The translations under genes were made by a program, and so were the position numbers. Below are positions 17,630 through 38,028 of a DNA stretch of 64,000 nucleotides, piece by piece (the stretch's first letter is position 1; each line of letters begins with the position of its first letter). The DNA is from Candidatus Obscuribacteraceae bacterium (GTDB lineage: Bacteria; Cyanobacteriota; Vampirovibrionia; Obscuribacterales; Obscuribacteraceae). The stretch is taken from positions 320,001 through 384,000 of the forward strand of contig JBGASG010000003.1 of assembly GCA_044229845.1 (NCBI GenBank), read 5' to 3'. The notes beneath the pieces were generated by a model that made no database searches, was not told where the DNA came from, and worked only from the letters and a program-made list of their open reading frames with translations.

Positions 17630-17630
17630 T

Positions 17631-21406: not shown

Positions 21407-21447
21407 CGGCGCGTTTCGAGCTATCGAGAGCAGCGCCGCTCCCACAG

Positions 21448-21475
21448 AAAAAGCCCACCTTTCAGTGGGCTTTTT
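21448..21475. terminator. Bidirectional rho-independent terminator
   Basis: AAAAAGCCCAC-CTTTCA-GTGGGCTTTTT between convergent genes. Confidence 0.85.
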
Positions 21476-21538
21476 CCGGCTTTTTCTCCCATACAGGCGT
21501 TCAGGCGAGGACTCCTTCACACCCGTATCGAAGTCTGT

Positions 21539-22312
21539 TTAGCAGGCTTGAGCTGGCGTCAAGCTGCGAATGCTGAGCGAAGAGCTGGCGACAGATTCCG
21601 CGCACACCGAGGCGTACTGTCTTTCAGTGCTCTGCCATTTGGCTTTTACGATGCCGTTCTTGTAGATATCCTGGTGCGTCACGAACGCGATGCGCTGGCA
21701 GATGCTGGAGCCAGCCAGTTCGTTTTGAACTGCTTCTTGATGAGCATCATCGCGCGAGACAATCCAGATCATGTCGATCTCACCGCTCTCCAGCGCCTTT
21801 TCGCAGACGGCGGTCAGTTCCGCGCGATCAGCTTTCGGCTGGTTGATGATACCGATACGGTGATCTACACCATTGCGGTTAAAAGAGATCTTGGCATCAA
21901 TTGCCGTCGTGCCGGGAACCGCTTTCGTGGTTGTCCAAGCGACATTGCTGATCAACCCGTCCTTTTGGTCGACCAGGAAGAGCATGCGAAGATTAGCCAC
22001 TTCCAGAAGGTGGCGCTGGCTGTCGCAGTTGCCCAGGTCGATGTCGGTGCTCTGTGCAGTCAACAACTCGCGCGTCATCGGCGAGAGCATATACACAAGC
22101 GGTTTCGTGGGGGTTGTCCACCACGGAAGTTTGCCGCCGTGCCGTTCGCACAGGAGGTAATCGAGGTAGAAGAGTTTGCGTAGACGGTCGCGGATCAATA
22201 CCGGTTTATCGTCGCAAGAGATAAACCAGGCGATGTGTTTTTCGAGGAGAACTTGATGCTCTTCAATCAGTTTGAAGATCATCATGTCTCTGTCGCTTAG
22301 TTGAATGGCCAT
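21539..22312 (-). CDS. Replication-relaxation (Replic_Relax)-like winged-helix protein with a degenerate nuclease region
   Basis: LSDRD..I.K.I.EH..L...HI......RDRLRKL....YL...P.VY.LS...HLL.VA follows the Replic_Relax N-terminal pattern. Confidence 0.55.
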   Translation of the reverse strand: MAIQLSDRDMMIFKLIEEHQVLLEKHIAWFISCDDKPVLIRDRLRKLFYLDYLLCERHGGKLPWWTTPTKPLVYMLSPMTRELLTAQSTDIDLGNCDSQRHLLEVANLRMLFLVDQKDGLISNVAWTTTKAVPGTTAIDAKISFNRNGVDHRIGIINQPKADRAELTAVCEKALESGEIDMIWIVSRDDAHQEAVQNELAGSSICQRIAFVTHQDIYKNGIVKAKWQSTERQYASVCAESVASSSLSIRSLTPAQAC

Positions 22313-22422
22313 TGGGGGTGGTCCTCGTTTTGTTGTTTTGCCAGCGATCTTTCGGGGGTGTGCTTCTTGGTGTGGGGGGAGTCTTGCGACTCAGTTAGAC
22401 TCTATATGTTTTCAACCGTTCT

Positions 22423-23118
22423 TCATAGGTTAGGATCACGTGTTGTGTATTGCAAAAGTGCATCATCATGACGCGGTTGGTGAAGGTTGTAAGTGACTCT
22501 CATTTTGGAATCCATCATTTTTAGAGAGCGATATTGCTGTCTGAGCCCTTCGACACGGGTATGAATTTCTTCCAGCGAGGCTTGCAGTTCTTCTTGAGTC
22601 TTGGCCGCCTTGCGTGGGCGAATCATATCTTCGAAAACCGCAGCGGAATCGTCGTACCAGTCCGCCATGTTCTGCATGTAGACTGTGCTTTCCGGCATTC
22701 CATTGCAGGGCGGCATCGAACGAATGGTCTTAGCTAGCAGACGGTATCTCTTCGCGATTCCGGCAGCAGTGCGCGACCATTCCATGACCCGCTCGACTTC
22801 TTGATTGAGCGGCTTTTTCATAATCACGGCTTCGCTGACCGTCACTTTGTAGTGACCAACAGCGTCGTCATAGGCTTCCATCCACTCCAACGGTTTCGAT
22901 TGCGGAGTTACTCGCGGCATGACCCACGGGGGAGTCGGACGCTTGTAGGTGTTGGCAGCAGCATTCGGCACAGGTGCCGTGGTGCGGTTGAAAACGTCTC
23001 CTTTTTGTTGCGGATGACCGCCGTTCGGCTGCGTCGCTTGCGCCATGGAGGAGGCGAAAGTGGTGGCAGCGAAGATGGCGCTGGTCAATGCAATTTGGAT
23101 ACGTTTCGTGGCTGTCAT
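22423..23118 (-). CDS. Hypothetical exported helical protein
   Basis: Signal peptide ending MAQA; Pro-rich linker; helical C-terminal region. Confidence 0.75.
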   Translation of the reverse strand: MTATKRIQIALTSAIFAATTFASSMAQATQPNGGHPQQKGDVFNRTTAPVPNAAANTYKRPTPPWVMPRVTPQSKPLEWMEAYDDAVGHYKVTVSEAVIMKKPLNQEVERVMEWSRTAAGIAKRYRLLAKTIRSMPPCNGMPESTVYMQNMADWYDDSAAVFEDMIRPRKAAKTQEELQASLEEIHTRVEGLRQQYRSLKMMDSKMRVTYNLHQPRHDDALLQYTTRDPNL

Positions 23119-23185
23119 GTCCGTGGTCTGCTGCTAGTTGTCTGTCGGTAATACTGATGTTTTTCGCGCAGTGTGAGTTTCTTGC

Positions 23186-24673
23186 TTACGGTCCTGGGTT
23201 CGCTGGTCCACCCGGGTTCGCTGGTCCTGCTGGTCCTGCTGGTCCTGCTGGAGCCGGTCCCGGATTGGTCGGCGGAAGGAACGGTCCACCCGGTCCACCA
23301 CCGCCCGGTCCTGGAATGTTCATGCGCGTGCCGTCTTGGTACTGCGCCCAGGTGTCAGTAGAGTTGAAATCAAAGGTGTTCATCTGGACGATCTTCCAGA
23401 TGGTGTAGCCGGCGAGCAGGAGGAGCAAACCACCGACTGCACCGATGACTCGCGAACCGCCGTACGGGCTGCCGAAGACCATCGACCACGCTGCCAGAGC
23501 AACGATGATGGTGGCCATAACGACGCCCAGGATAACCAGATAGCGAGAGAAGACTCTTACTGTCGGGAGCGGTCCCATGAAGTCATATTTTGGTTGTTGT
23601 TTTTGACGGTTGAGTTGGGTGTCTTGTTCGCCGTTGGCTCCAGCTTTGGCTCCGCCGTTGTTAACGATGCCGAGACCATTGTTGTTGCCGCCGTTGTTGA
23701 CGACTTGTTGTCCGCCGTTGCCGCCGCCGAAGTCGTTCTGACGTGTGCCACCATTGCCGGCACCACCTTCGAACTGACCGTTGCCGCCGTTGCCGGCACC
23801 ACTTTCAAATACGCCGCGTCCGCCGTTGCCCTGGCCGCCTTCGAACAGTCCCTGACCGCCGTTGCCGCCACCGCCTTCGAACACGCCTTGACCGCCGTTA
23901 CCAGCGCCGCCTTCGAAGAAACCACGGCCACCGTTGCCCTGACCGCCTTCGAACGTGCCGCGACCGCCATTGCCCTGGCCGCCTTCGAACAGTCCTTGAC
24001 CGCCATTGCCGGCGCCGCCTTCGAACATGCCCTGACCGCCGTTGCCATAGCCACCTTCAAAGGTGCCTTTGCCATTGTTGCCCCAGCCGCCTTCGAAGAG
24101 TCCCTGTCCGCCGTTGCCGGCGCCGTTTTCATACTTGCCCTGACCGCCGTTGCCGTAGCCGGGTTCGTAGGTGTTTTTGCCGCCGTTGCCCCAGCCGCCT
24201 TCGTAGAGACCTTGACCGTTGATCGGCGCGCCGTTTTCATACACACCGTCCATTTGACCGTGTTGTGTTTGATAACGACCGTAGTTGTTGATGACTGGAC
24301 CTTTGGTGCCCGGGGCGCCACGGGTTCCGAAAATGTTGCCGTGTGTCGGATCGGCAAAGCTGGACGGAGGCAAGCTCGAAGCGCCTTGATCGCCGGGAAT
24401 GACACGCGGAGCCATGGAGCCATCGCCGACCGGCGGCGGTTGTCCTTGCGGAGCAGCTTGGTTAGGACGCTGCCAGGAAGCACCATGGATCAAAGGAGTA
24501 CGCAATGTCGATTGTTGCGTCGGACCGGACAAGCATGGCTTGGTCGGGTTGTACAGCATCTCGGCATATTCAGCGCGAGCGGTTGTCGGTGCGAACAGCA
24601 TCACCACACCAGTGATGATCAGGCTGATCGCCGTCAACGCTTGTTTTACTCCAACTCTATCCTTGCCTGACAT
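23186..24673 (-). CDS. Exported Gly/Asn-rich 12-aa repeat protein with a C-terminal two-TM hairpin (TrbC/VirB2 pilin-like)
   Basis: AGGAGA RBS, signal peptide ending ARA, 14 xFEGGxGNGGxG repeats, two hydrophobic helices, Pro/Gly tail. Confidence 0.8.
   Translation of the reverse strand: MSGKDRVGVKQALTAISLIITGVVMLFAPTTARAEYAEMLYNPTKPCLSGPTQQSTLRTPLIHGASWQRPNQAAPQGQPPPVGDGSMAPRVIPGDQGASSLPPSSFADPTHGNIFGTRGAPGTKGPVINNYGRYQTQHGQMDGVYENGAPINGQGLYEGGWGNGGKNTYEPGYGNGGQGKYENGAGNGGQGLFEGGWGNNGKGTFEGGYGNGGQGMFEGGAGNGGQGLFEGGQGNGGRGTFEGGQGNGGRGFFEGGAGNGGQGVFEGGGGNGGQGLFEGGQGNGGRGVFESGAGNGGNGQFEGGAGNGGTRQNDFGGGNGGQQVVNNGGNNNGLGIVNNGGAKAGANGEQDTQLNRQKQQPKYDFMGPLPTVRVFSRYLVILGVVMATIIVALAAWSMVFGSPYGGSRVIGAVGGLLLLLAGYTIWKIVQMNTFDFNSTDTWAQYQDGTRMNIPGPGGGGPGGPFLPPTNPGPAPAGPAGPAGPANPGGPANPGP
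23741..24244 (-). repeat. Coding tandem repeat, 14 x 36 nt, plus about 3 degenerate units down to ~23633
   Basis: Units such as LFEGGQGNGGRG and MFEGGAGNGGQG. Confidence 0.9.
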
Positions 24674-24686
24674 TATGTGGTCTCTC

Positions 24687-27600
24687 CTATGAGTCCTGAT
24701 TGTGATTGTCAGAATTGCCATCTTCCTTTTTGGCAGGCGCGACGGTCACCGTCTGGGTGAGTTGCGCAAGTTGTCGCGAGAGCGACGCGAGTTCACTGAT
24801 CGACGGGAAGTCGAGCATCTCGTCGGATTCATCGGCCCAGAGGCTGGCGGCCAGCGATCTGGCGACATCCTGGGCGGTGGAAGGAGCTTCAGTCGCCGGA
24901 ACTTGCAGTTCTTCAGCGTGCACCACTTCCGGTTCTACTTGTTCGGCGCAGGGGATGCCCTGAGCGGCAGCACCAATTACGGTGGCTTCGGGTTCCAGCC
25001 CCATTGGTTGCACCAGTTCGGCCAACTCTTCCAGAGTTTCTGGGCTCATTTCGAGCATCGCCGGATCCATCACGTCTTTCTCGGCACGAGCCGGCATGTC
25101 GGTGAGGATGTCGGTTGTTTGTTCGCTGATGAATGCATCGAGCAGGTCGGAAGAAACCGGTTCGTCTTCGATATCGTCGATGAGCGGCTCCATGGACATT
25201 TCGAATTTGGTTTTGACGGCGCCCTTGGCGTTGGTGACGGAGGTGATGATCGGTGCCGTCGGCGTCGGGCGCACGACAGGCTCGTAATCGCCAGCCGGAA
25301 TCTCGATGATGTTTCTGCCTTCTTCTTCGAATTGAGCAACTTTGGAGACCATGTACTCTTCTTCGAGCGACTTGGCAGCGGCTTCGCGAGCGTCTTTCTC
25401 GGCAGCCTCTTCTTGGGCTTCGACGTATTTGCCCAGAGTCACTTCCAGACCGAGACCGCGCAGTTCGCAGCACAGTCCGTCGAAAGCAGCGGTGCGTCCG
25501 CCGGCGGTGACTTCCTTGCCTTGCACCATATCGGCATAAGCTTGATGGCGGCCTTGAATGTCATCGGACTTGATGGTCATCATTTCGTGCAGCAGGTGCG
25601 AGGCGCCGTAGGCTTGAATTGCCCAGACTTCCATTTCGCCCATGCGCTGTCCGCCGTGGTTGGCTTTGCCGCCGACCGGCTGTTGTGTAACAGCGGCGTA
25701 CGGTCCGCCCAATCCGGAGCGGGCATTGATTTTGTGCAGAACCAACTGGTTGAGCTTCAGCATGTACTGTCTGCCGACCAGGACCGGCGAGTCGAAAGCT
25801 TCGCCTGTTCTGCCGTCAAACAATTGCACTTTGCCGGATTCGGTAACCCACTCATAGCCGGGCAGTTTGCGCACTTCGGCAAGAGCTTGGGTGACGAGCT
25901 TGAAGGAAGCATCTTTTTCCAGCGATTCGTCGAACTGGTGAATGCGATAGTGACGATTGAGGATGCTGGAATAAAGACCTAGTTGTGTGTCGAATACTTG
26001 ACCGACGTTCATACGGCTGGGGACGCCCAGTGGATTCAACACGATGTCGCACGGAGTGCCGTCCGGCAGGTAAGGCATGTCTTGATCAGGAACTACGATC
26101 GAGACGATACCTTTGTTGCCGTGGCGTCCAGCCAGCTTGTCGCCGACTTCGAGCGGGCACAAACGCGCGATAAGTACTTCGATTTCGCAGATGATGCCAG
26201 CTTTCAATTCCGGTGTGGTTTCCGGTGTGAAGATGCGGACATCGATAACGCGACCACCCGAGCCGTGCGGAACACGCAGGCTGCTGTCAGCCATTTCTTC
26301 CGCCACTTTACCGAAGATAGCTTGCAAGAGTTCTTCTTCAGCGGAGAGAGCGCGAGCTTCTTTCGGGCTCAATTTGGCGACGAGAATATCGCCCGGGTTG
26401 ACGTAGCTGCCGACCATGGCGATGCCGCGTTCGTCGAGATGCTCGAGGTCTTTACCGGCGACGTTCGGCAGTTCCGGCGTCAGAATTTCTGGTCCGCGCA
26501 GGGTCTGGTGAACACCGATGGAGTGCTTTTCGATTTCGATGTGCGAAAGTTTGTGGTCGCGGATCAAACCTTGACGGACGACAATCGCGTCTTCGAAGTT
26601 GTAGCCGTTCCATGGCACGAAGGCGACGAGAAGGTTTCTTCCCAGAGCCAGTTCGCCTTGATCGATACCAGGACCATCAGCGATGATCTGTCCGGCTTCG
26701 ACGCGATCGCCCTGTCTGACGATCGGGCGCTGGTCGAGAATTGTGTTCTGGTTGGTGCGGTCGAAGCGAATCATGTTGTAGGTGCGCGATTCGCCGGAAG
26801 CTTGGGTGATGACGATCTGATCGCCGTTGACCAGGCTGACAGTACCGGCGCGACGGGCGACGACTGAGTGACCGGACGAGCGAGCGACGATTTTTTCCAT
26901 GCCGGTGCCGACGCGCGGACGTTCCGGCTTGATCAAAGGCAGAGTTTGGCGCATCATGCCGCCACCCATGAGAGCGCGGTTGGCGTCATCATGCTCGAGG
27001 AAAGGAATGAGAGCCGATCCGACCGAGATGAAACCTTGCGGAGCAATACCGATCATGTCTACTTGATCTGGTGTCACTTCGAAGAACTGTTCGCCGCAGC
27101 GTGCCGAAACGAACGGTCCTTGAATCATGTCGTTTTCGACTTTGGTGTCGGGCGGTGCAAGCGTGAAACGCTTGTCGTCTGATGGTGTCAGGTAACGGAC
27201 TTCATTGGTCACATGTCCGTTTTGCACGACGCGATAGGGAACGGTCATGAAGCCGTCGTCATCGATACGGCAGTAGGTTGCCAGATATGCCACCATACCG
27301 CAGTTTTTACCTTCAGGCGATTCCACCAGGCACACGCGACCGATTTGCGAAGGATGCACATCGCGCATTTCGTTCGGAGCGGCGTTCGGGTCGATGCCAC
27401 CAGGACCGAAGGAGGTGATTCTTCTTCTGTGCGACAGTTCGGAAAGTGGGTTCTGTTGGTCGAGGTATTGAACCAGGGGGTTGCCGGCGAAGAACTTGCT
27501 CATGGCATTGACGAACGGGCGCGAATCGACGAAATCATTGGCGCTGCCGATTTCATCTTCTTCGAACAGTTCGAGGCGGGTGCGAATCGAGCGCGACATT

Positions 27601-28598
27601 TGTGCCAGCGCCGGACGCAGCCCCTTGGTCATCACATCGCCGATACCGCGCAGGTGGCGGTTTTCCAAGCTGTCGATATTATCTGTTTGTCCAGAGCCGA
27701 GCGGCAAAAGCAGAATGTATTCGATAGCAGCAAGAATATCTTCAGCGGTCAGTTGCGAAGAGCGCTCTTCCAGACGCAGCTTATCGTTGAAGCGGCGACG
27801 ACCGAGCGAACCGAGTGAATAACGACGTTTGTCGGTGAGTTCTTTCAGGGCAGCATGACCGGATTGCGAACCGCCGCCACCATCTGGTTTCCACGCGCGA
27901 CCGACGACGGAAAGCGCTTCTTGCTGAGTGACTTGTTTCCACTCGATGCGATTCTTTTCCAGAAGCGGAGCGAGACGTTTTTGAATGGTGGACAGTTCGA
28001 CGCCCATGGCGGTCAACACTGTGGTGGCAGCCACCCAACCACGTTTGGGCAATTTGATACGGCATTTGGCGCGGCTGGTTTTGCCACTGCCGGTTTCCAG
28101 ATCCAGTTCGACGGAGACCGGAGCGCCGAGTTCAGCCAGGATAAGAGCTTTGTAGAGCATCGGGTTGTTCATTTGGAAATAGACGCCTGGTGCACGCACC
28201 AGTTGTCCGAGGACGACGCGCTCGGAACCGTTGATGACGAAGGTTCCACGATCGGTGATCACCGGCAGGTCGCCCATGTAAGCAGTCGACTTGCGCAGTT
28301 CGTTGGTTTGCAGGTCACGCAGCCACACATCCATGAGCAGGCGACGGGCATGCGTCATGTTAGTCTTGCGAGCTTGCTCGGCAGAACTGGGATAACCGGA
28401 ATCAACTGCATAATCTTCGAACTTCCAGTGAGCTTTGCCGTCGGGTCCGACGAACGAAAGTTCAAGGCGCGGATTGAATTCGCTGGCAATCGGAGAGATT
28501 TCAGCGAAGAGGGCGCCCAGGGTTTCTTCCAGAAAACGTCGGTATGAACGTCTCGGGAATTCTGCCAGATCTGGAGGCTGGAAGTAGAAGTTACTCAT
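24687..28598 (-). CDS. rpoB: Divergent DNA-directed RNA polymerase beta-subunit homolog (probable second copy) with an acidic C-terminal extension
   Basis: GTFVINGSERV, PFLEHDDANRALMG, GYNFEDAI, GDKLAGRHGNKG, LNPLGVPSRMNVGQ, GGQRMGEMEVWA, TIKSDD; no rpoC adjacent. Confidence 0.95.
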   Translation of the reverse strand: MSNFYFQPPDLAEFPRRSYRRFLEETLGALFAEISPIASEFNPRLELSFVGPDGKAHWKFEDYAVDSGYPSSAEQARKTNMTHARRLLMDVWLRDLQTNELRKSTAYMGDLPVITDRGTFVINGSERVVLGQLVRAPGVYFQMNNPMLYKALILAELGAPVSVELDLETGSGKTSRAKCRIKLPKRGWVAATTVLTAMGVELSTIQKRLAPLLEKNRIEWKQVTQQEALSVVGRAWKPDGGGGSQSGHAALKELTDKRRYSLGSLGRRRFNDKLRLEERSSQLTAEDILAAIEYILLLPLGSGQTDNIDSLENRHLRGIGDVMTKGLRPALAQMSRSIRTRLELFEEDEIGSANDFVDSRPFVNAMSKFFAGNPLVQYLDQQNPLSELSHRRRITSFGPGGIDPNAAPNEMRDVHPSQIGRVCLVESPEGKNCGMVAYLATYCRIDDDGFMTVPYRVVQNGHVTNEVRYLTPSDDKRFTLAPPDTKVENDMIQGPFVSARCGEQFFEVTPDQVDMIGIAPQGFISVGSALIPFLEHDDANRALMGGGMMRQTLPLIKPERPRVGTGMEKIVARSSGHSVVARRAGTVSLVNGDQIVITQASGESRTYNMIRFDRTNQNTILDQRPIVRQGDRVEAGQIIADGPGIDQGELALGRNLLVAFVPWNGYNFEDAIVVRQGLIRDHKLSHIEIEKHSIGVHQTLRGPEILTPELPNVAGKDLEHLDERGIAMVGSYVNPGDILVAKLSPKEARALSAEEELLQAIFGKVAEEMADSSLRVPHGSGGRVIDVRIFTPETTPELKAGIICEIEVLIARLCPLEVGDKLAGRHGNKGIVSIVVPDQDMPYLPDGTPCDIVLNPLGVPSRMNVGQVFDTQLGLYSSILNRHYRIHQFDESLEKDASFKLVTQALAEVRKLPGYEWVTESGKVQLFDGRTGEAFDSPVLVGRQYMLKLNQLVLHKINARSGLGGPYAAVTQQPVGGKANHGGQRMGEMEVWAIQAYGASHLLHEMMTIKSDDIQGRHQAYADMVQGKEVTAGGRTAAFDGLCCELRGLGLEVTLGKYVEAQEEAAEKDAREAAAKSLEEEYMVSKVAQFEEEGRNIIEIPAGDYEPVVRPTPTAPIITSVTNAKGAVKTKFEMSMEPLIDDIEDEPVSSDLLDAFISEQTTDILTDMPARAEKDVMDPAMLEMSPETLEELAELVQPMGLEPEATVIGAAAQGIPCAEQVEPEVVHAEELQVPATEAPSTAQDVARSLAASLWADESDEMLDFPSISELASLSRQLAQLTQTVTVAPAKKEDGNSDNHNQDS

Positions 28599-30697
28599 TA
28601 CTTAGCCACCTCGACATCGCCATTACCGCTCACCATGGAGCGTTTGTGAATCGCAAGCGCCCGGGCCAGGTCTTCGGCGTAAGCGCGATTTGCTGGTTCG
28701 AGAGCAGACGCGATCCGGAATTCAGAGATTGCATCAGCGATGCGACCGGCGGCCAGCATGTTGACGGCCAGGCGGTGGTGCACTTCGCTGTTTTGAAGGA
28801 ACTTAGCGGCCACGCCTTGCAGGATGCTGATGGCTTGGTCGTAGTTCTTGTCGCCTTCGGCTTGCGCAGCTTTCGAAATCGCTTCGGCGACTTGGCTGTT
28901 TGCTGAGTTTGCTGCGTTCGGCTTCTGGGCGGCTTGCTGTTGAGCAGCCAGAGCTTGTTGTTGGCGAGCTTGCTGCTGTTGGGCGGCGATTGCTTGTTGC
29001 TGGGCAGCCACGGCTTGCTGTTGCATCATTTGCTGTTGCGACATTTGCTGCGGCATGGCGCCGGCAGCCGGCATTGACTCGTTGTGCGTGCGCAGACCAT
29101 ACTGGTTGCCGGCCATTTGCATGCCGTTACCGCCTTCGAACACGTTCTTTTGCGGAACGGGCGGCGGGTAGGCAGCTTGTTGCTGCATCGGTTGCTGCTG
29201 TTGCACTTGCGGTTGTTGCATTTGCTGCTGCTGTTGCTGCTGCATTTGCACCATTTGCTGAGAAACGCTTTGTTGCGGCTGAGCGAGTTGGCTGGCCACT
29301 TGATTGACTTGCGGAATCTGCATACCGCGATTCTTCATGCCCGACTGCATTTCGCGCATGCGAGCAGCGGCTTCGCGGTTGTTTTCGGGATCGATAAGCA
29401 CGCAGGTCAGGTAGGCCTGGTAGGCACCTTGGTAGTCGCCATTGGACTCGAGGGTTTCGCCCATCAGGAATTGATACTTGGCGTTGCGGGGCTCCATCAT
29501 CACAGCCTGAGTGATTTCAGCGAGAGCTTCGCGGCGCAGACCTTGACCAAAGAATGTTTCGGCGGCGGCTTTGTGCTTTTCGGCGGAAGCGTGCTGGAGA
29601 GCTTTTTGCAGGCTGGCACGACCGGAAGGCAGACCAGGATGTTTGGGATCGAGAGCTTCCAGTTTGCGGTATTCATTGTCGGCACCAGCGAAGTCGCCGG
29701 TCAATTGCAGGGCGCCAGCCAGACCGAGGTGGTTTTCGGCGAGCAATGGATTTTGTGCCACTTGCCGGCGCCAAATTTCAACCAGTTGTTGACCAGCGGC
29801 GGCATCGCGCGGATCGCAGATGACTGCTTTGCGCAGCGAAGCACCAGCGCCGGTGTAGTCTTTTTGAGCCAGAGCCAGCATGCCCAGTTGGCGATGGGCT
29901 GGTCCGAAGTTGGGATCTTTGATCAGAGCTTGTCTATACCAGTTGGTGGCGGTGGTCAATTGACCATAACGCAGAGCCATATCGCCGACTTTGACGAAAG
30001 TGCGAGCCGTGGGCTCGATTTGCATGGCGGCCTGGTATTCAATAGATGCGCCTTCGAAGTCGCCGACAGCAGCCAGTTGGTCGCCGGTGGCGATTCTGGT
30101 CTCGGCGTTGTTGGGGTCACGACCCATCTTCTTAAGGGCTTCACCGAGCAAACGACCAGCCAGTCCGTTGTCTGGAGCGGCGGCGAGGGCTTGGCGGAAA
30201 AGGTTGGCCGCGGTGTTGAAGTCGCGGGCGTTCAGTCTTTCTTGACCGTAGGCGCAACGCGCTGCCGAAAGGTTGATTTTGTATTGCTTGTTGCTGGGCT
30301 CGTACTTGCAGGCTTCTTCGTGAGCAGCAATCGACTCGGACCAGCGACCTGCTTTTCCGAGTGACACACCTTTATTGTTTTGTTCGAGGGCGTACTGGAC
30401 GCGACGCTTGAAGTTGTCGCCGACGGCTTGTTGTTCTTTGGCTGCCTTTTCTTCAGCCGCTTTCTTAGCTTCTTCAGCAGCTTTCTTCTTTTCGGCTTCG
30501 ACAACACGGTAGTCGGGACGGCGCTGGAATCCGCTCACTACCGGAGCGCTGGTCTGACCTTCTTCGAAATTCTTCAGGTCGCGCTCGCGGGGCAGCGGCT
30601 GGGCGTTCATCTTGGTGGCATGCGCCGGGATGAACATCGTGCCCGAGAGCGTGGTGGCGAGAAGGAGAGTTGCTGCGATGGGTCGAACTTTGTGCAT
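28598..30697 (-). CDS. Exported multi-TPR protein with a Gln-rich low-complexity region
   Basis: Signal peptide MHKVRPIAATLLLATT...PAHA; many TPR motifs; poly-Q/QA tract; stop overlaps the rpoB ATG (TAATG). Confidence 0.85.
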   Translation of the reverse strand: MHKVRPIAATLLLATTLSGTMFIPAHATKMNAQPLPRERDLKNFEEGQTSAPVVSGFQRRPDYRVVEAEKKKAAEEAKKAAEEKAAKEQQAVGDNFKRRVQYALEQNNKGVSLGKAGRWSESIAAHEEACKYEPSNKQYKINLSAARCAYGQERLNARDFNTAANLFRQALAAAPDNGLAGRLLGEALKKMGRDPNNAETRIATGDQLAAVGDFEGASIEYQAAMQIEPTARTFVKVGDMALRYGQLTTATNWYRQALIKDPNFGPAHRQLGMLALAQKDYTGAGASLRKAVICDPRDAAAGQQLVEIWRRQVAQNPLLAENHLGLAGALQLTGDFAGADNEYRKLEALDPKHPGLPSGRASLQKALQHASAEKHKAAAETFFGQGLRREALAEITQAVMMEPRNAKYQFLMGETLESNGDYQGAYQAYLTCVLIDPENNREAAARMREMQSGMKNRGMQIPQVNQVASQLAQPQQSVSQQMVQMQQQQQQQMQQPQVQQQQPMQQQAAYPPPVPQKNVFEGGNGMQMAGNQYGLRTHNESMPAAGAMPQQMSQQQMMQQQAVAAQQQAIAAQQQQARQQQALAAQQQAAQKPNAANSANSQVAEAISKAAQAEGDKNYDQAISILQGVAAKFLQNSEVHHRLAVNMLAAGRIADAISEFRIASALEPANRAYAEDLARALAIHKRSMVSGNGDVEVAK

Positions 30698-30889
30698 CGT
30701 GGTGGAAGAACCGTGCCGGTGGCGAACTGTGAGCACAGCTTAACGATGCGGGGGGTATGCGGTCTATTGGGGTTTGTCCCACGGCATTCGTAAATCTCCC
30801 ATGCCGGATAAAATCGCGCCCCATGGGCGTTCACCCGCCGTTTTGAGTTGCGTAAAAACCGCAAGATTTCGCGTGTCGGGATGACAGAC

Positions 30890-32695
30890 TTAGCGCAAGG
30901 TCTGCAAAACGGTCGGGCGAGCCAGAACAGTGTCAGATCCAAATGGCTGTTGTTTGTTTCGTACGTCGACTGTAGGCAGAGGCGGGACCAGGTGGTTATT
31001 TTCTTCATCGCAAGCGAACCCGGCCATGTGTTGAGCATCGAACACAGGTTCTGCATATCGGGGCTCGCTTGTTTCCTCCCCTACCAGAACCGGGTGGGAC
31101 ATGGTCTTGGTCATAGCGTATTCGATATCTGCCATGGACATCGCGGGTGCAGGTGGACAGGTTCCTGGGTCCGGCACGTTTGCTTCTCTAGTTTTAAGAG
31201 CTGATGGAGTAGTGATAGCCGGTAAATTAGAAACAGGGTCAGCCTGTCTTTCAGGGAAAGCGTCTTGCTCATAGTTCTGGTTAGGACTCCACCCCACCAG
31301 TGCCGGCACGATCGACGCGCTGGCGTCGGCGGGCAGACCCTTCCCATGTTCAGGCATAAAACCGTGAATAGGCTGGCGGTCGTGAGCAATGAGCTGGTAG
31401 GGGTCGGCCATCGCCGAGGGCTTGCCGGACGGCGCCGGGGTGACAGGCTGGGGCGGCGTCGGGGTGTTTTCCTGCTCTTCGATTTGCTGGCGCAGCTGTT
31501 CCAGGGTACTGGTCAACGCCTGCTTCGCCGCAGACACGCGCATACCAAAATACATGCGGAAGTCCATGCCGCTGAGACCGGGAGTGCGACCCGCCTTCAT
31601 GTTCCAGATGGGCTCAGCGCGAGCAAAGACTTGGAAGCCGGGAATTTGTCTGAACAGTCTGCGAGCAATCTCGAAATCAGAGATCATAGTGTAATTATTC
31701 TTGGGGATGGTGGCATGTTCGCGAAATGGTTCGCGGAAGTTCTGCACGAAGGTGGAGGTGGCCGAGAACGTCCATCCACCACGTTGATGCACCATACCCC
31801 AAGTGTAAAAGGGGTCTATTTCCCGGTTTGGAGATTTGAAATAGCCGGTGCCGCGCAACTGCAAGAGACAATTGGCAAACACCACCGTATTTGGTGGCGT
31901 AGTCAGAACGCGAGTAGCGGTGATGCCGGGCAAAAAGTCGAACAATGGCAGCTGATTGGTCTGCCAGAGATCGCGGAACTGCATTTCGACTTGAACGTTC
32001 GAACGGCTGCCGATCGGGAAGTCGTGCTGCACAGCCGTCGTCACTGAGTTGATATTGGTGTTGAGCTTGATGTTGTGGGCCAGCGAATCTCGCAGGAAGA
32101 AATAGTTGACGTAAGCCCGAGTACGCGGCGTGAAAGTCCATCCCGCAGTAACGTTGGGCAAGATACGGAAGACCGTATCTTCGCGGCTGGCGAGAGCCAA
32201 AATGCTCGACACTTGATTTTTCTGGAATGCCGAAAGGCGGAAAAAGTCATTGCCCTGCGGCAAGGTGGTGATCAAGTTGCGCTTGGTAGGAAACTGGAAA
32301 ACGTTGGTTTCGACACGCACCGATGTTTCGGCGGTGCCGGTCAGATAGAGCCGGGAAGGCAGAGCTTGCAACAATCGCAACTGGAGATTTTCTCCGACCG
32401 TCATACGATTGCCGAGCGACTGAGCCGGCAAAGTATCGGTCGGCAAGATGGTCGTGCCAGTGGGCGCCTGCACGTTGGGCAGGTCGACACGGGGAGCGGG
32501 AGTTGTAGTTGTAGGAGGGGCGATCTGCGCCACCGCCGGCGAAGCCACAAAACCGGCCAGCAAAATGCCGATAGTGCTTGCGCGCTTCACCACGTCATCT
32601 GTCAGCCGAGGGGCTATTTTTCTCGCCGATGCCACCGGGTTACCCATTAGTAAGCGATCGCTCCCAGCAGCCCTCGCTAGTGCTCTTTGGAACAC
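30890..32695 (-). CDS. Putative outer-membrane beta-barrel protein with a Pro-rich C-terminal extension; true start probably 32593-32647
   Basis: Signal-like ILLAGFVASPAVA; alternating amphipathic strands with aromatic residues (PNVTAGWTF, AYVNYFF, PFYTWGMV, FRMYFGMRV). Confidence 0.55.
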   Translation of the reverse strand: MFQRALARAAGSDRLLMGNPVASARKIAPRLTDDVVKRASTIGILLAGFVASPAVAQIAPPTTTTPAPRVDLPNVQAPTGTTILPTDTLPAQSLGNRMTVGENLQLRLLQALPSRLYLTGTAETSVRVETNVFQFPTKRNLITTLPQGNDFFRLSAFQKNQVSSILALASREDTVFRILPNVTAGWTFTPRTRAYVNYFFLRDSLAHNIKLNTNINSVTTAVQHDFPIGSRSNVQVEMQFRDLWQTNQLPLFDFLPGITATRVLTTPPNTVVFANCLLQLRGTGYFKSPNREIDPFYTWGMVHQRGGWTFSATSTFVQNFREPFREHATIPKNNYTMISDFEIARRLFRQIPGFQVFARAEPIWNMKAGRTPGLSGMDFRMYFGMRVSAAKQALTSTLEQLRQQIEEQENTPTPPQPVTPAPSGKPSAMADPYQLIAHDRQPIHGFMPEHGKGLPADASASIVPALVGWSPNQNYEQDAFPERQADPVSNLPAITTPSALKTREANVPDPGTCPPAPAMSMADIEYAMTKTMSHPVLVGEETSEPRYAEPVFDAQHMAGFACDEENNHLVPPLPTVDVRNKQQPFGSDTVLARPTVLQTLR

Positions 32696-33256
32696 AGCCG
32701 TGAACTACACTGGGAGCAATCCTACATGTCGTCCTGTGTAGAAGCAAGACGTTATCATTGACCTCCTCACTTTCTTGAGAGGAAAGTGATCCCGACTCGG
32801 AGTCCGACATGAACGCCGACACGGTGGGTTCCTGCTTCATCGAGGTTGCCAGAATTTCTGGTCTTAAGTCCTCTCCACAGGCTCATCGGGCGAGCCCCGC
32901 CCTGCAGTCCCTGCGTGGTTCAGCAGGGACCATACATACGTATCTCATAGTTGAGTTTCCGTTTGCAACTCCAGTTTCTAACTGCCGACTCCGCCGGCGG
33001 TGCTCTCTCCTCCATCGCGCCCCTGAACTCAATGGTCAAGATGTAGCTGAGAGAATCCGATGACTGATATCGTTCGAATAGCCATCTGTGTTTGAGAAAG
33101 CGGCGAATCAGGTATGTACTTGACGGGGTTTCCAGATTCCCGTAACGTAGCGGGCAAGACATTTTCAGGAATTCCGCCGTCGGCCGCAGCGGCGTTGTTA
33201 CAATAGAGCGGTGACTACCAAAGACGAAGTTCGTCTAAATCTTATCCGGAGCAACT

Positions 33257-34108
33257 TTGGAAACTATTCCGACCGGCAGTCAGCCTCGACCGACGGTATT
33301 CCGTCCGAAAACAGTCATCTGCGAAAGACATGAACTGATTCGCTTTGGCTTGAAGCGGGTGGTATCGGAGGTGCTCGAGATTGTCGGCGAAGCTTCCGAC
33401 GGCATGGCTGCCACCGAGGTGATTCGCCGGTTGCAACCGCATTTCGTCATACTCGACGTCGACCTGGATATTCTCAACGGCGTTGAAGTAGCGCGCCGGG
33501 TGTCGCAAGAATTTCCCAACAGCAACATCCTCTGCCTGACTGATTCTTATCACGCCACCAAATATCACAACCAGCTCATCCGCTCTGGTGTGCGCGGCTT
33601 CTGCCTGAAGAGTTCAGGACCGCGCACGCTGTTCGAAGCCATCGAACAGGTAACTCGCGGATTGCCTTATTGCGACCCGAAGATCACACAGTTGGTCAAG
33701 CAAACGCCATCGAATGCGATGCCCAACACCAACCTCACGGATCGCGAAATCGAAGTCTTGATTCGTCTGGATTTGCGCAACAAAGAAATCGCCGAAGAAC
33801 TGGACATGAAGCTGCGCACGGTGGAGAAACATATCGAGTGCATCCTGGCAAAACTGAAGGTTCCCACTCGCACGGCGGCTGCACTTAAAGCTGTGCAGTT
33901 GGGTTATGTGCTCTTGCCGAAGATGCCCGGCCGCGACCCGGTGACCGGCGTCACTTACGAGCAGACTGTCGCCGAACTGCAGGCCGAACTGGCCATCGCC
34001 AACGAGCACTTGAAGGCACTTTTGAAGCAAAACGAACTCCTGAAAGACGCGTTGCACGATCGGATGCGGCAGCAGCAGAACAAACCGCCGGACAATCCGT
34101 CGACATAG
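33257..34108 (+). CDS. NarL/LuxR-family response regulator
   Basis: REC domain (IVGEASDG, VILDVDL) plus LTDREIEVL...NKEIAEEL....RTVEKH HTH; GGAG RBS and TTG start. Confidence 0.92.
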   Translation: METIPTGSQPRPTVFRPKTVICERHELIRFGLKRVVSEVLEIVGEASDGMAATEVIRRLQPHFVILDVDLDILNGVEVARRVSQEFPNSNILCLTDSYHATKYHNQLIRSGVRGFCLKSSGPRTLFEAIEQVTRGLPYCDPKITQLVKQTPSNAMPNTNLTDREIEVLIRLDLRNKEIAEELDMKLRTVEKHIECILAKLKVPTRTAAALKAVQLGYVLLPKMPGRDPVTGVTYEQTVAELQAELAIANEHLKALLKQNELLKDALHDRMRQQQNKPPDNPST

Positions 34109-34226: not shown

Positions 34227-35237
34227 GTGAAGATCGCGCATATCGCGGCGGTACTGATTTCTGTCTCTTTTGCCACGTGTCCCAAGCTGGCCATCGGCAA
34301 AGAGATGTCTTCCAACGGGCATTTTCAGATCGCCGGCAAAACCAGTCGCACCATTCAGAAATACACCGGACTGACTTGGGTCGGAAACCATCTGGTTAGC
34401 GCCGGAGCCGGTCTGGCACTGAAGTCCAGGCTCGGCGGCAAAGTAAAAGTAAAAGCACGCAGCTACAGTTTCACCGACATGCTGCAAGGCAAATTCGAAA
34501 CTGTCGAAGTGCACATGAAAAACTCCAAAGTCAAAGGAATTCCGATGGGTACGGTGATCGCCCGCACAGACCAGCCTGTCAAGGTTCGGTACTTCAAAAA
34601 GAATGGTCAGCGGGCCGGGGTTGAGACACCAGTTCTGGTATCACTGTCCGGGTCAATAAATGAAGAGCAAGTGACGCGCGCTCTCAACTCGAAAGAGATA
34701 TCGCAAGTCCTGAGAATTCTCAAACTGGACCTACCTGGACTTGGCGAACAGCAGCTCCAGATCTTAGATCCGGAGGTTTTGCTCGAAAAAGATCAGATTA
34801 CTTTAAAAACGGTGATGATCACAAAAGGGGCCGCGAAAGAAACCGGCGTGCCACTCACCATAGTGGCGCATCCGGTGCTGGAAGGGGATCGCCTGATTGT
34901 CCTTAAAGAGACGAAAATCGACTCCAAGATCATCGAAAAGCCAGAGCTGTTCGCCCAGTTCGCTGAGGAACTGCTCAACCCGCTCTTCGATTTCGGCCGA
35001 TTAGACAGGCAAAGCCATGCTTTGCGAGTGCAGAAATTGAATTTGTCCGACAAAGAAGTCTCATTTGATGGTAAATTGTTGCTGGCACCGAAGCCCAAAG
35101 CAGCGGCGCCGTCCCAGGCGGAAGCCAAAACAGGAAACGCCCAGGCAGGAAACAGCAATCCGCTACCACCGGCAAACAAAGCAGAAGAGACTAAACCTGT
35201 CGACGGCGGCAAGCACGTTTCCGAAAACAAAAACTAG
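34227..35237 (+). CDS. LmeA/DUF2993-family phospholipid-binding protein
   Basis: Signal peptide; DMLQGK...V.V....; INEEQVTRALNS; LLNPLFDF..LD pattern. Confidence 0.6.
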   Translation: MKIAHIAAVLISVSFATCPKLAIGKEMSSNGHFQIAGKTSRTIQKYTGLTWVGNHLVSAGAGLALKSRLGGKVKVKARSYSFTDMLQGKFETVEVHMKNSKVKGIPMGTVIARTDQPVKVRYFKKNGQRAGVETPVLVSLSGSINEEQVTRALNSKEISQVLRILKLDLPGLGEQQLQILDPEVLLEKDQITLKTVMITKGAAKETGVPLTIVAHPVLEGDRLIVLKETKIDSKIIEKPELFAQFAEELLNPLFDFGRLDRQSHALRVQKLNLSDKEVSFDGKLLLAPKPKAAAPSQAEAKTGNAQAGNSNPLPPANKAEETKPVDGGKHVSENKN

Positions 35238-35251
35238 AAAGTCTGGTTTCT

Positions 35252-35776
35252 ATGCAAAAATCGATGAGTCTGGCTCTGGCAGGGATTCTCTGTGCTTTCC
35301 TGCCTCTCTGCGGCTGTACCCAGCGAACGATTCTCACAGGTAACTCCAGCACCGCAGACAGTATCGCTCCAGAAAAGAACCAGGTGATCGTATGGTTTGT
35401 GCGTACAACCGAGGGCGGTACCAGGTTTGTGGCGGTCAAACGCCCCCAGCGCGGCAACGACAGGCTGGCTTCCGCCCTGCAGGAACTGCTTTCCGGTCCC
35501 AGCGACAAAGAATCCCTGCAAGGGCTGGGCAGTGAAATTCCACGCGGCACCATTTTGCTGGGCGTCAAACATAAGAAAGGCAATCTCGAGGTTGATCTTT
35601 CGCGCCGCTTCGCATCAGGTGGTGGCAGCGATACGATTGAGGCAAGGCTTTCGCAGTTGCAGCGGACCGTAGAATCGAATGACGAAAAAGGCGACGTTTA
35701 TCTGAATGTCGAAGGACAGCGACTGACGATGACGATGGGCGAGGGAATTGAAGTGCCGCAACCGATAAATCGCTGA
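35252..35776 (+). CDS. GerMN-domain lipoprotein
   Basis: Lipobox-like [13 protein letters not shown]....GL.SEIP.GT.LL.V......VDLS..F.SGGGS....RL.QL..T...V.L.VEG. Confidence 0.85.
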
Positions 35777-35939
35777 ATTTCGCGTGTTCGCGACCGATCA
35801 TCTCGTCCCAGCCCTGAATTGGCAGTTCTTAATAGATCCGGAAGGGGACGCTCCCCATCTGGTAAGATGTCGTTTTGGTCGCGTTTTTAAGCGACCGACG
35901 TACTCGGAAATCAAAGACAGTCATCAAAGAAGGATTGCC

Positions 35940-36164
35940 ATGAAAGAAGGCATTCACCCCAAGTATCAAGAAGTCATCGCCACTTGCGTCTGCGGAAACA
36001 AAGTAGAGCTCGGCTCGACCAAACCGCAAATCAAGGTGGAAATTTGCTCGAACTGCCACCCGTATTACACCGGTCAACAGAAGATTGTTGACACCGAAGG
36101 TCGGGTTGACCGCTTTGTCAAGCGCTACAGCAAGAAGAAAGACGAAGCCGCTGCTAAGAGCTAG
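35940..36164 (+). CDS. rpmE: 50S ribosomal protein L31 (Zn-binding type)
   Basis: MKEGIHPKY...CVCG...[24 protein letters not shown]. Confidence 0.97.
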
Positions 36165-36172
36165 GTGCCACT

Positions 36173-36910
36173 TTGCAATCTGCCAGAGAGAAACTAATCC
36201 TGGCGGTCGATACTTCATCATTGGAAGAAGCTCGTGCGATCGTCGACGAGCTTCATGATTCTGTAGGTATTTTTAAGGTCGGACTGCAGCTGCTGTCCAA
36301 TCACGGACCGAAGATTATCGAAGAACTGGTGTCCGGCGGACTGAAAGTCTTCTGCGACGGCAAGTTTCACGACATCCCCAACACCGTCGAGCAGGCAGCC
36401 GAAGGCATCGCCGGTCACGGCGCTTTCATGTTTACGGTCATGACCTGCGGCGGGAAAAAGATGCTGGAAGGCGCGGTCAAAGGCGCGACACGCGGCTCCG
36501 CGCGCGGCGGACACGCAGCGCCGATTGTGCTAGGAGTAACTGTTCTTACCAGCCTCAGCCAGAAAGTCGTTAATGAGGAGCTGAAAGTAGACCTGCCGGT
36601 CGACGAGTACGTGCTCCATCTGGCTGAACTGGCGCGCGATTCGGGGGTCACAGGCATCGTGGCGTCCGCAGAAGAAGTGGCTCGCTTGCGCCACGCATTG
36701 GGCAAGGAGATGGTGCTGGTGACACCGGGCGTCCGACCGTCGTGGGCGGGAGCAGACGACCAGGCACGCATTGTGACCCCGGCTGATGCCATGAAACGTG
36801 GTGCCGACTACATTGTAGTCGGGCGCCCAATCACGGCTTCGGACAATCGCAAAGCAGCCGCCCAGCGCATTGTGGACGAGATGGAATCAGCCCTGGCGCA
36901 TACGGGTTGA
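36173..36910 (+). CDS. pyrF: Orotidine-5'-phosphate decarboxylase
   Basis: LILAVD, FKVG, DGKFHDIPNTV, GVTVLTS, VTPGVR, DDQAR, VVGRPI. Confidence 0.95.
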   Translation: MQSAREKLILAVDTSSLEEARAIVDELHDSVGIFKVGLQLLSNHGPKIIEELVSGGLKVFCDGKFHDIPNTVEQAAEGIAGHGAFMFTVMTCGGKKMLEGAVKGATRGSARGGHAAPIVLGVTVLTSLSQKVVNEELKVDLPVDEYVLHLAELARDSGVTGIVASAEEVARLRHALGKEMVLVTPGVRPSWAGADDQARIVTPADAMKRGADYIVVGRPITASDNRKAAAQRIVDEMESALAHTG

Positions 36911-36917
36911 ACCGGAG

Positions 36918-38009: not shown

Positions 38010-38028
38010 AGATTTCCCTGTCAGAGCA

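Follow-up and report, generated by a model that had tools for sequence, protein, structure and literature searches.

The rpoB' locus and its conserved neighbourhood

The window analysed here, a stretch of 64,000 nucleotides from Candidatus Obscuribacteraceae bacterium (assembly GCA_044229845.1, contig JBGASG010000003.1, positions 320,001 to 384,000), carries a second, divergent gene for the beta subunit of RNA polymerase (RNAP), referred to below as rpoB'. The gene lies in an operon with genes for exported, membrane and cytoplasmic proteins, which diverges from the gene for a NarL-type response regulator (Table 1). An earlier note on the same DNA had described six co-directional minus-strand open reading frames (ORFs), encoding a putative beta-barrel, an exported TPR protein, an RpoB homolog, a Gly-repeat/pilin-like protein, an exported helical protein and a Replic_Relax-like protein, and had proposed an alternative polymerase subunit co-expressed with a contact, secretion or DNA-transfer apparatus. 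All six frames are present, and the core of that proposal, an alternative polymerase subunit encoded together with exported and membrane proteins, is upheld by a second rpoB in a conserved operon.

Gene order was compared over up to 20 kb around rpoB' in 20 related loci of 19 genomes, by tblastn with the window proteins. The TPR gene immediately precedes rpoB' in all 20 loci, and the three genes downstream of rpoB' are present in all 18 loci that extend that far. The regulator gene and a gene for a 336-aa protein lie divergently upstream in 16 of the 20; of the four loci in which the regulator is not adjacent, three reach contig ends and one (genome G020) has the regulator on another contig. 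The conserved unit consists of the NarL-type regulator gene and the gene for an exported protein, divergent from the TPR, rpoB', two-transmembrane (2-TM), helical and Replic_Relax-fold protein genes. The synteny expected by the earlier note is therefore found across relatives, except that its first gene, the 601-aa 'beta-barrel' ORF, occurs in only 2/20 loci. Because of this restricted occurrence, and because it lies upstream of the conserved promoter, the 601-aa gene is a lineage-specific insert between regulator and promoter, outside the conserved unit; its product has no family match in Pfam, NCBIfam, PADLOC or PHROGs.

The junctions within the operon are tight. The stop codon of the TPR gene overlaps the rpoB' start by one base (TAATG, 28600-28596), as had been noted earlier, and the corresponding junction in related loci is an ATGA overlap in 15 of 19, a one-base overlap in one and a gap of 3-4 nt in two. 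The rpoB' stop codon TAG likewise lies, as previously read, inside the ribosome-binding region of the next gene (TAGGAGAG), 8 nt ahead of an ATG at 24673 that is likely to be the true start of that gene, since it aligns with the starts of its orthologs. The conserved -10 element ends at 30737, which makes the ATG at 30697 (MHKVRP...) the probable start of the TPR gene. The closing terminator of the earlier note is seen as a bidirectional hairpin, which separates the operon from a TPR gene of convergent orientation.

Across genera the module occupies one and the same chromosomal location, next to pyrF, cdaA and lysA. The flank on the regulator side (window 35252-38057) holds a Germane (GerM-type) gene, a small ORF, pyrF, the di-adenylate cyclase gene cdaA and a lysA-like decarboxylase gene; among 19 relatives' loci, and limited by the ends of those loci, the Germane gene was found in 14, pyrF in nine and cdaA in eight. 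The flank on the opposite side of the module is not conserved across genera. Identity to the window proteins across genera ranges from 81-91% for the regulator and 69-81% for RpoB' to 48-63% for the 257-aa Replic_Relax-fold protein, 42-58% for the TPR protein and 29-43% for the helical protein.

Table 1. Genes and sites of the rpoB' module and dispersed copies of its promoter element (window positions unless a contig is named)
Feature	Position	Strand	Remarks
Intrinsic-terminator-like hairpin, bidirectional	21447-21476	both	12-bp stem, A-run before, T-run after
Replic_Relax-fold cytoplasmic protein	21539-22312	-	257 aa
Exported helical-bundle protein	22423-23118	-	231 aa; N-terminal signal-like segment
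2-TM membrane protein	23186-24673	-	ORF as listed to 24721; signal peptide, Pro-rich stretch and Pro-rich tail
rpoB', second divergent RNAP beta subunit gene	24687-28598	-	1303 aa; core about residues 1-1056
Exported TPR protein	28598-30697	-	ORF as listed to 30736 (GTG); stop overlaps rpoB' start
Conserved operon promoter	30737-30804	-	Tandem boxes and -10-like element upstream of TPR gene
601-aa protein	30890-32695	-	Signal-like N-terminus; putative 'beta-barrel' of the earlier note
NarL/LuxR-type response regulator	33257-34108	+	PF00072 (Response_reg) 2.6e-14; PF00196 (GerE) 7e-11
336-aa exported or membrane-anchored protein	34227-35237	+	Co-directional with regulator; no Pfam or NCBIfam hit, nothing informative in PADLOC or PHROGs
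Germane (GerM-type) domain protein	35252-35776		Follows the 336-aa gene
Tandem-box copy	54763-54810	+	Upstream of 881-aa ORF (54927-57572, +); nhmmer E 6.2e-5
Tandem-box copy	contig C18:109157-109220		Upstream of 78-aa ORF

A second rpoB in addition to the housekeeping copy

RpoB' contains all six Rpb2 Pfam domains (PF04563, PF04561, PF04565, PF10385, PF00562 and PF04560), with PF00562 at E 2.4e-98 and PF04563 under its cut-off (25.8 against 28.2 bits). The protein also scores above the cut-offs of two NCBIfam rpoB equivalogs, NF001616 (1078 vs 896 bits) and TIGR02013 (1034 vs 801), in line with the original description of an RpoB homolog. Housekeeping rpoB is located directly before rpoC. The neighbour of rpoB' is a membrane protein gene and not rpoC, and a search throughout the source genome (5.16 Mb, 88% complete) returned two PF00562 loci: rpoB' on contig C18, and a copy on contig C1, which the sole rpoC1 and rpoC2 (frames of 626 and 1263 aa) directly adjoin. 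The C1 copy is the housekeeping rpoB and belongs to the split-beta-prime (cyanobacterial) type, and rpoB' is a true second rpoB; the possibility, raised in the earlier note, that this might be the sole rpoB of the genome is thereby answered. RpoB' is about 45% identical to the housekeeping RpoB of its own genome, and the value is 43-46% in all 11 genomes compared.

The source genome has one rpoC1, one rpoC2 and one rpoA, and neither a second beta-prime gene nor a second alpha gene was found in this 88%-complete assembly. In addition, no second rpoC1 was found in five near-closed relatives of the family (94-99% complete), each of which has one, so that the paralogous rpoC1/rpoC2 sought elsewhere did not come to light. 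A contaminated or chimeric bin was considered as the source of the second rpoB and rejected in view of two single-contig genomes (G041 and G063), in which both copies lie on one chromosome; the GC content of rpoB', which is similar to that of its surroundings, also counters this explanation.

Conserved and replaced residues of RpoB'

Twenty-one RpoB' sequences were compared with 57 canonical RpoBs from the class, the rest of the phylum, Bacillota, Spirochaetota, Saccharimonadota and Pseudomonadota. Positions are given in E. coli numbering, mapped via the E. coli gene, and the roles attached to them are those presumed from the E. coli and Thermus literature. A position was termed near-universal if at least 95% conserved among the canonical proteins, and switched if a different residue is fixed (at least 90%) in RpoB'. 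At the 312 near-universal positions, RpoB' proteins keep the canonical residue at 211, have switched and fixed another at 69, and vary at 32. Invariant in all 21 are R678, R687, E813, D814, K1065, K1073 and R1106, which are taken to be active-centre residues, and Q513, D516, H526 and R529 are also unchanged. The motifs NFED, GRHGNKG, K..ARS, GGKA..GGQR.GEME and KxDD are retained, with a two-residue insert after K..ARS.

The switched positions are concentrated in the fork domain, at the presumed rifampicin pocket and fork loop 2, with others elsewhere in the protein. The changes S509N, Q510P, S512V, F514Y, M515L, T525S, S531T, A532S, L533F, T563S and I572V line what is assumed to be the rifampicin pocket and clusters I-II; K527R is a further switch. 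At fork loop 2 the switches are L538I, R540P, R542A, G544P and V547M, and this loop, taken to be part of the streptolydigin site, reads GPGGIDPNAAPNEMRDVH in RpoB' and GPGGLTRERAGFAVRDIH in canonical RpoB. Further switches are W183P, at the Trp that presumably stacks on the non-template strand; H1237Q, at a residue presumed to lie, with K1065, near the initiating nucleotide; and N684G, Q686M and H1244N. Four near-universal residues are replaced at the C-terminus (P1320T, E1321A, S1322A and V1325G), in a segment assumed to pack against beta-prime. Within the fork domain 17 of 41 invariant positions are switched, identity to the housekeeping beta being 52% and identity among RpoB' proteins 94.8%, and the lobe and protrusion are 22-36% identical to the housekeeping beta.

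Past residue 1056 or so, the protein continues into an acidic, RpoB'-specific tail of about 250 residues, in which three conserved motifs are joined by variable linkers: a block of about 80 residues containing ...LEIPAGDY.PV.RP...ITS.T.GK...EPLIDDI, the motif FI..T.D and, near the end, DFPSLSELQSLA.EL. The housekeeping RpoB of the source genome (G000:C1:23734-27300, 1189 aa) also ends in a long acidic tail, which is Gly/Asp-rich and has no obvious relation to that of RpoB'.

In the order and length of its core domains, in having no large lineage insertions and in its catalytic residues, RpoB' resembles cyanobacterial RpoB; its best PDB match is the cyanobacterial beta subunit 8syi chain C (query residues 6-1067, 914 bits), followed by 8h3v_A and 8gzg_C. 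It differs from housekeeping RpoB in not lying beside rpoC, in W183P and H1237Q, in the two-residue insert, in its tail and in evolving about twice as fast. As judged from sequence, the product of rpoB' is probably a catalytically competent but remodelled beta subunit.

A different reading places RpoB' outside the normal core, either in a non-canonical enzyme with the Replic_Relax-fold protein or other partners, or as a regulator or decoy, without an alpha2-beta-beta-prime assembly. It would be consistent with the altered near-universal residues in the presumed beta-prime-facing C-terminal segment, at W183 and at H1237, with the docking-like appearance of the three tail motifs, with the lack of a matching second beta-prime among the genes found, and with a constant co-operonic partner whose N-terminal 115 residues are nearly invariant. 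Nevertheless, active-site residues that have meaning only beside the catalytic Asp triad of beta-prime are all invariant, 211 of the 312 universal positions are kept, which a decoy would not need, and the ratio of nonsynonymous to synonymous substitution (dN/dS) is 0.02-0.12 over the whole core. A place outside the core is accordingly quite improbable.

Comparison with known rpoB duplications

The remodelled pocket also raises the alternative that RpoB' is an inhibitor-insensitive spare, a special case of the alternative-beta model, which would be induced when RNAP inhibitors or inhibitory proteins hit the housekeeping beta. The inhibitors in question would be natural products resembling rifamycin, sorangicin or streptolydigin, as has been proposed for actinomycete rpoB(R)/rpoB2. 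The fixed changes in the presumed rifampicin pocket listed above (K527R apart), together with the altered fork loop 2 at the presumed streptolydigin site, would suit such a role, as would the labelling of the sequencing runs that hold the stretch as sludge or bioreactor metagenomes. A precedent is available in actinomycetes: according to PMC5431353, Nonomuraea gerenzanensis (rpoB(R)/rpoB(S)) and Nocardia farcinica (rpoB2) carry duplicated, polymorphic rpoB paralogs, in which changes of the H526N and S531Y type are tied to rifamycin/sorangicin resistance and to cohabitation with producers. The biological meaning of the duplication is termed obscure in the abstract of that paper.

Against a spare of this kind, the positions classically involved in resistance, D516, H526, Q513 and R529, retain their residues in RpoB', and S531 has changed only to Thr. 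Moreover, a divergence of 55% spread over all domains, lobe and protrusion included, is far above what resistance needs, and rpoB' shares its operon with genes for envelope proteins and for a protein of DNA-binding type rather than belonging to a biosynthetic cluster. An inhibitor-insensitive spare is thus an unlikely explanation, though slightly more probable than a beta subunit working outside the core.

The likeness to the actinomycete duplicates, as described in PMC5431353, lies in one beta-prime with two rpoB genes, two forms of RNAP, an altered rifampicin-binding region and a proposed outcome of changed global transcription and/or tolerance of RNAP inhibitors. The differences from that description are that H526 is kept in 21/21 RpoB' proteins and residue 531 is Thr, not Tyr or Asn; that RpoB' is about 45% identical to the housekeeping copy with 69 near-universal residues switched, unlike the focus there on single substitutions; and that rpoB' belongs to another phylum, is family-wide rather than scattered over species, and lies in an operon for envelope proteins that has its own regulator and promoter. 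A full-text literature search, with most subscription journals outside its coverage, found no description of rpoB'. The actinomycete duplicate is presumably a recent and closely similar copy of the housekeeping gene, which rpoB', with 43-46% identity to the housekeeping product and a stem of 2.61 substitutions per site, is not.

Distribution, origin and selection

Matches of the RpoB' type (at least 71% identity) were found in at least 89 of the 107 genomes of the order, the source genome included; within the family they occur in at least 88 of 104 genomes, and in the sister family in one of three, on a 4.5-kb contig. These order-wide counts are lower bounds, taken among the matches listed. 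Among 41 relatives compared, rpoB' (at least 72% identity) was recovered from 22 of the 24 further family genomes, and the two without it are 58% and 85% complete; the regulator and the 257-aa protein show an identical pattern, each being present in those 22 and missing from those two. Outside the order, rpoB' was found in none of 13 genomes from six other families of the class, where regulator-type matches (at least 78% identity) were also absent (0/13), and in none of 120 other sampled genomes of the phylum, in which no match exceeded 51% identity. A scan of 1.84 billion protein representatives clustered at 50% identity retrieved 22,264 RpoB-like proteins, and only one full-length and one partial protein of the RpoB' type (79% identity) were among the representatives, the next-best protein having 41% identity. 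A contig search for related loci was swamped by universal RpoB motifs and yielded one RpoB'-type locus, from 'Cyanobacteria bacterium REEB67'.

The gene is under strong purifying selection, with dN/dS of 0.019-0.121 in seven of seven pairs (Nei-Gojobori, first 1060 codons). Over 11 genomes (55 pairs) the mean core divergence is 20.9% for RpoB' and 9.9% for the housekeeping beta, a ratio of 2.1, and the two divergences correlate (Pearson 0.55), which fits vertical co-inheritance of rpoB' at a roughly doubled rate. In a quick IQ-TREE search (LG+C20 PMSF, 53 rows of 78, 1063 columns) the nine RpoB' proteins sampled form a single clade (SH-aLRT 100) on a stem of 2.61 substitutions per site, and the phylum's housekeeping RpoBs as a whole are its sister group (99). 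This sister placement and the cyanobacterial best PDB matches favour an ancient duplication, either inside the lineage or close to its base, after which the sequence changed rapidly; the exact placement of the clade is unsafe because the stem is very long. Recent horizontal transfer was rejected, as there is no close relative of rpoB' outside the order, and is further countered by the conserved chromosomal neighbourhood and by the way in which its divergence tracks that of the housekeeping rpoB.

One relative (G007) has two copies of the module (L022 on contig C21 and L035 on contig C50), which are separated by a dS of 1.06 with a dN/dS of 0.08. The contamination value of this genome is 8%, and its two modules may go back to an old duplication or belong to two organisms binned together. 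In the family as a whole, contamination values are 1-12%, compared with 0-2% in most small-genome families of the class.

The operon partners

The TPR protein matches nine TPR families in Pfam and has a Sec-type signal peptide (MHKVRPIAATLLLATTLSGTMFIPAHA, followed by T), as the earlier description of an exported TPR protein had it; in this protein and its orthologs the signal peptide is followed by a conserved ATKLNAxPLP motif. In the 2-TM protein, an alignment of 18 orthologs shows strong conservation only at about residues 380-450, a transmembrane hairpin of two helices. The Gly repeats (FEGGxGNGGQG) that had given this protein its first description are real, yet they occur in only 3/18 orthologs, the source genome included; elsewhere a small domain stands where the GNGGQG repeats occur in those three. 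The protein belongs to no Pfam, NCBIfam, PADLOC or PHROG family, and its pilin-like character is seen only in Atlas scores of an ortholog (TrbC/VirB2 0.80, T4SS_pilin 0.79, lowest 0.77), which lie under the 0.9 level and are leads only. The exported helical protein is as first described: in addition to its signal-like segment, its AlphaFold 2 (AF2) model has a mean pLDDT of 78, with residues 70-225 mostly above 90 and folded as a helical bundle. No PDB match at E<=0.001 was obtained for it with Foldseek (best 0.88), and no Pfam, NCBIfam or PADLOC family, the PHROG search giving one weak row of unknown function (E 0.0098).

The last gene of the operon encodes a 257-aa protein whose helical N-terminal 115 residues or so are almost invariant among orthologs. 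Its C-terminal domain is restriction-endonuclease-like (PD-(D/E)xK-type; AF2 pLDDT >85), with Foldseek matches to PaqCI, BamHI and FokI at E 5e-4 to 3e-2, and the Asp of the canonical nuclease motif is not invariant among orthologs. The earlier assignment to Replic_Relax stands at the level of the fold and fails at that of sequence profiles. In the ESM Atlas, clusters carrying PF13814 are adjacent (features 0.95; structure TM score 0.70 over residues 3-239, with predicted models on both sides); in the cluster matched by structure 93% carry PF13814, and 18 of the 30 nearest clusters carry it. With hidden Markov models (HMMs), none of 17 orthologs has a Pfam match at E<=1, PF13814 included. The predicted fold thus agrees over nearly its full length with Replic_Relax proteins of plasmids and phages, from which the 257-aa protein differs in being encoded by a chromosomal, single-copy gene fixed in the rpoB' operon and in having no HMM match.

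These similarities are what remains in favour of the apparatus of the earlier note, that is, a contact, secretion or DNA-transfer machinery that co-expresses or delivers RpoB', or the domesticated remnant of a conjugative element: a Replic_Relax-like fold and the sub-threshold Atlas leads of the 2-TM ortholog to TrbC/VirB2 and T4SS_pilin (0.77-0.80). However, no HMM match to VirB4 (PF03135), VirD4 (PF02534) or PF13814 was found across the 88%-complete genome, the PF13814 scan being a weak one whose controls matched in no genome, and none of the operon proteins matches a pilin or relaxase family. RpoB' has no signal peptide, and the barrel candidate is absent from 18/20 related loci. Moreover, the chromosomal location of the module is constant, its divergence correlates with that of the housekeeping rpoB, and there is no PADLOC match and no informative PHROG match. 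A transfer apparatus is therefore very improbable and, for present-day function, largely refuted, while a mobile element may have contributed in the distant past, given the Replic_Relax-like fold and the weak pilin leads.

A defence system was also considered and rejected, as no operon protein has a PADLOC match (ten proteins scanned). The weak PADLOC rows obtained concern proteins outside the operon only, namely the regulator (CARF3-type, E 2.4e-4 and weaker) and an 881-aa ORF (LmuB, E 0.008), and the PHROG hits of the module are generic (RpoB, TPR and regulator families).

On the regulator side, orthologs of the 336-aa protein contain one in-frame stop in four of 17 cases (L018, L026, L029 and L030), which may reflect decay, assembly error or wrong extension of the ORF. 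Only the intact rows were aligned, these four being dropped.

Regulator, promoter and expression

The divergent upstream regulator is of the NarL type, as first noted, with a receiver and a GerE domain; its best NCBIfam rows are NarL-like and all fall below the equivalog cut-offs. No other protein of the module is as highly conserved. A complete phospho-acceptor pocket is presumed to consist of DD, D, T/S and K. In the regulator the acidic pair DD has become C-E in 17 of 17 sequences, and an alignment by eye suggests that the presumed phospho-Asp (ILDVD), the T (LTDS) and the K (CLKS) are kept. No histidine kinase gene was found in the module. The regulator resembles NarL/FixJ-LuxR regulators in its receiver and GerE helix-turn-helix, in its divergence from a presumed target and in boxes that abut the -35 region, and is unlike them in the C-E for D-D and in an extra, invariant C-terminal coiled coil.

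A conserved promoter upstream of the TPR gene was identified by comparison among relatives. It reads ATGGGA-N4-TACGAA-N5-TGGGA-N4-CCCCAATAGAC, followed by a spacer of 17-18 nt and CGTTAAGCT; in the window the boxes occupy 30762-30802(-) and the -10-like element is TAAGCT (30737-30742). The tandem-box element could be aligned in 10/10 extracted upstream regions from different genera, with looser versions visible in others, and its profile matches the operon promoter with an nhmmer E of 2.4e-17. The 20-mer TGGGANNNNCCCCAATRGAC, with up to one mismatch, was found in 20 of the other 24 genomes of the family, usually as a single copy adjoining the module, and a reversed control pattern gave three matches across all 41 genomes. 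A scan with the sigma-70 consensus showed no excess over shuffled sequences (4 vs 4.6). The neighbouring regulator is presumed, from the position and conservation of the boxes, to bind them.

A second conserved element, TATTGTAACAACG, is present at 33193-33205 (-), about 50 nt upstream of the regulator start, and recurs in most relatives' regulator-TPR intergenic regions. Read in the direction of the regulator it contains TACAAT, a possible -10.

Across the source genome the tandem-box profile has three matches at E<1e-4, the operon included; the other two precede a 78-aa ORF and the 881-aa ORF (Table 1), of which the latter has only weak Pfam hits below cut-offs. A looser pattern, of two palindromic TGGGA...CCCA boxes, lies upstream of the gene for an 888-aa LysM protein (contig C1, near 323522). 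These dispersed copies may mark a small putative regulon of the module's regulator.

Parts of the stretch are present in 17 RNA-library runs from five studies, with the environmental labels already mentioned. Contigs were mapped from four runs of four studies, and along 21.4-30.7 kb metatranscriptome-library contigs match at 99-100% identity. The gene junctions are each crossed by single contigs, namely TPR/rpoB' (28416-28754), rpoB'/next gene (24287-24777), 2-TM/helical (23060-23381) and the last junction (21693-22503 and 22208-22473). All four junctions are thus spanned, in keeping with the co-transcription proposed in the earlier note, and a single transcript is more than contigs can demonstrate. 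The stretch of the 601-aa gene (30.7-32.4 kb) has almost no cover in three of four runs, which, being non-cover, is no evidence.

A proposed alternative beta subunit for a single core

Taken together, the observations are best accommodated by a regulated, alternative beta subunit that is swapped into the single core to give a second form of RNAP, and this reading is held with moderate confidence. On this model the active regulator would switch on the TPR-rpoB' operon, along with a few further promoters built in the same way. RpoB' and the housekeeping beta would then compete for the one available set of alpha, gamma/beta-prime and omega, and the core containing RpoB' would differ where beta touches nucleic acid, by presumed role at fork loop 2, the rifampicin pocket at the RNA-DNA hybrid, the non-template-stacking Trp and the initiating-nucleotide His. 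The tail would bring three conserved docking motifs to this second core. Owing to these differences at nucleic-acid contacts and in the tail, the second core would be expected to initiate, to pause and to respond to factors or inhibitors differently. RpoB' would be produced with exported and membrane proteins as part of an envelope-linked programme, such as stress, dormancy or differentiation, with the Replic_Relax-fold protein, of DNA-binding type, as candidate dedicated factor.

Several points weigh against the swapping of beta subunits. Assembly of RpoB' with beta-prime and alpha is itself deduced from sequence, and the replacement of P1320, E1321, S1322 and V1325 in the presumed beta-prime-facing segment means that RpoB' may pair differently with beta-prime. 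Also replaced are H1237 and W183, which are otherwise invariant. As the source genome is 88% complete, it may hold a second beta-prime of its own, though none was found in the five relatives of 94-99% completeness. Of the five proteins encoded by the operon, three are exported or membrane proteins for which no connection with transcription is evident, and only position and conservation speak for binding of the regulator to the tandem boxes. Finally, assembled contigs from RNA libraries attest presence only, and not strand, level or a single transcript, and such libraries may contain carried-over DNA.

An extension of the beta-swap model, bolder and considerably less probable than it, is that Obscuribacterales possess two distinct RNA polymerases, in which the RpoB' core, switched on by the regulator and working with its own factor, would serve a separate gene set or template. 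The Replic_Relax-fold protein could then act as specificity factor, perhaps docked on the tail motifs, and the changes in fork loop 2, W183P and H1237Q could alter the handling of the transcription bubble in an envelope-remodelling state. If true, this would mean that labour is divided between polymerases in a bacterium through exchange of beta alone.

In the textbook view, bacteria have one RNA polymerase core, which is diversified only by sigma factors. Published exceptions to a single core that came to light are limited to rpoB duplicates in a few actinomycetes (PMC5431353). A family of non-photosynthetic cyanobacterial relatives carries a second beta gene, and the data suggest that it can assemble a second form of the enzyme. 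RpoB' is ancient, family-wide and strongly selected, yet has replaced residues that are invariant in essentially all other bacteria, at presumed contacts with the RNA-DNA hybrid, the downstream fork and the non-template strand, and so constitutes a natural experiment on which of the 'universal' beta residues are required. Core-enzyme switching by a regulated alternative beta is directly testable, the subunits being co-expressible and assayable, and a defined regulator, a promoter motif and a small putative regulon are now available in an uncultured lineage. The Pfam domains of rpoB are used as single-copy markers, so that rpoB' may inflate contamination estimates and confuse rpoB-based typing.

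Other features of the window

Away from the module, the window contains two genes for RHS-repeat proteins, at 4436-11140 (+), encoding 2234 aa with Peptidase_C39 and LysM domains, and at 11876-14971 (+), encoding 1031 aa. They are followed by an IS66 Orf2 (TnpB_IS66) gene at 17183-17653 (-). This RHS/IS66 region resembles a locus of the polymorphic-toxin type and is unrelated to the rpoB' module.

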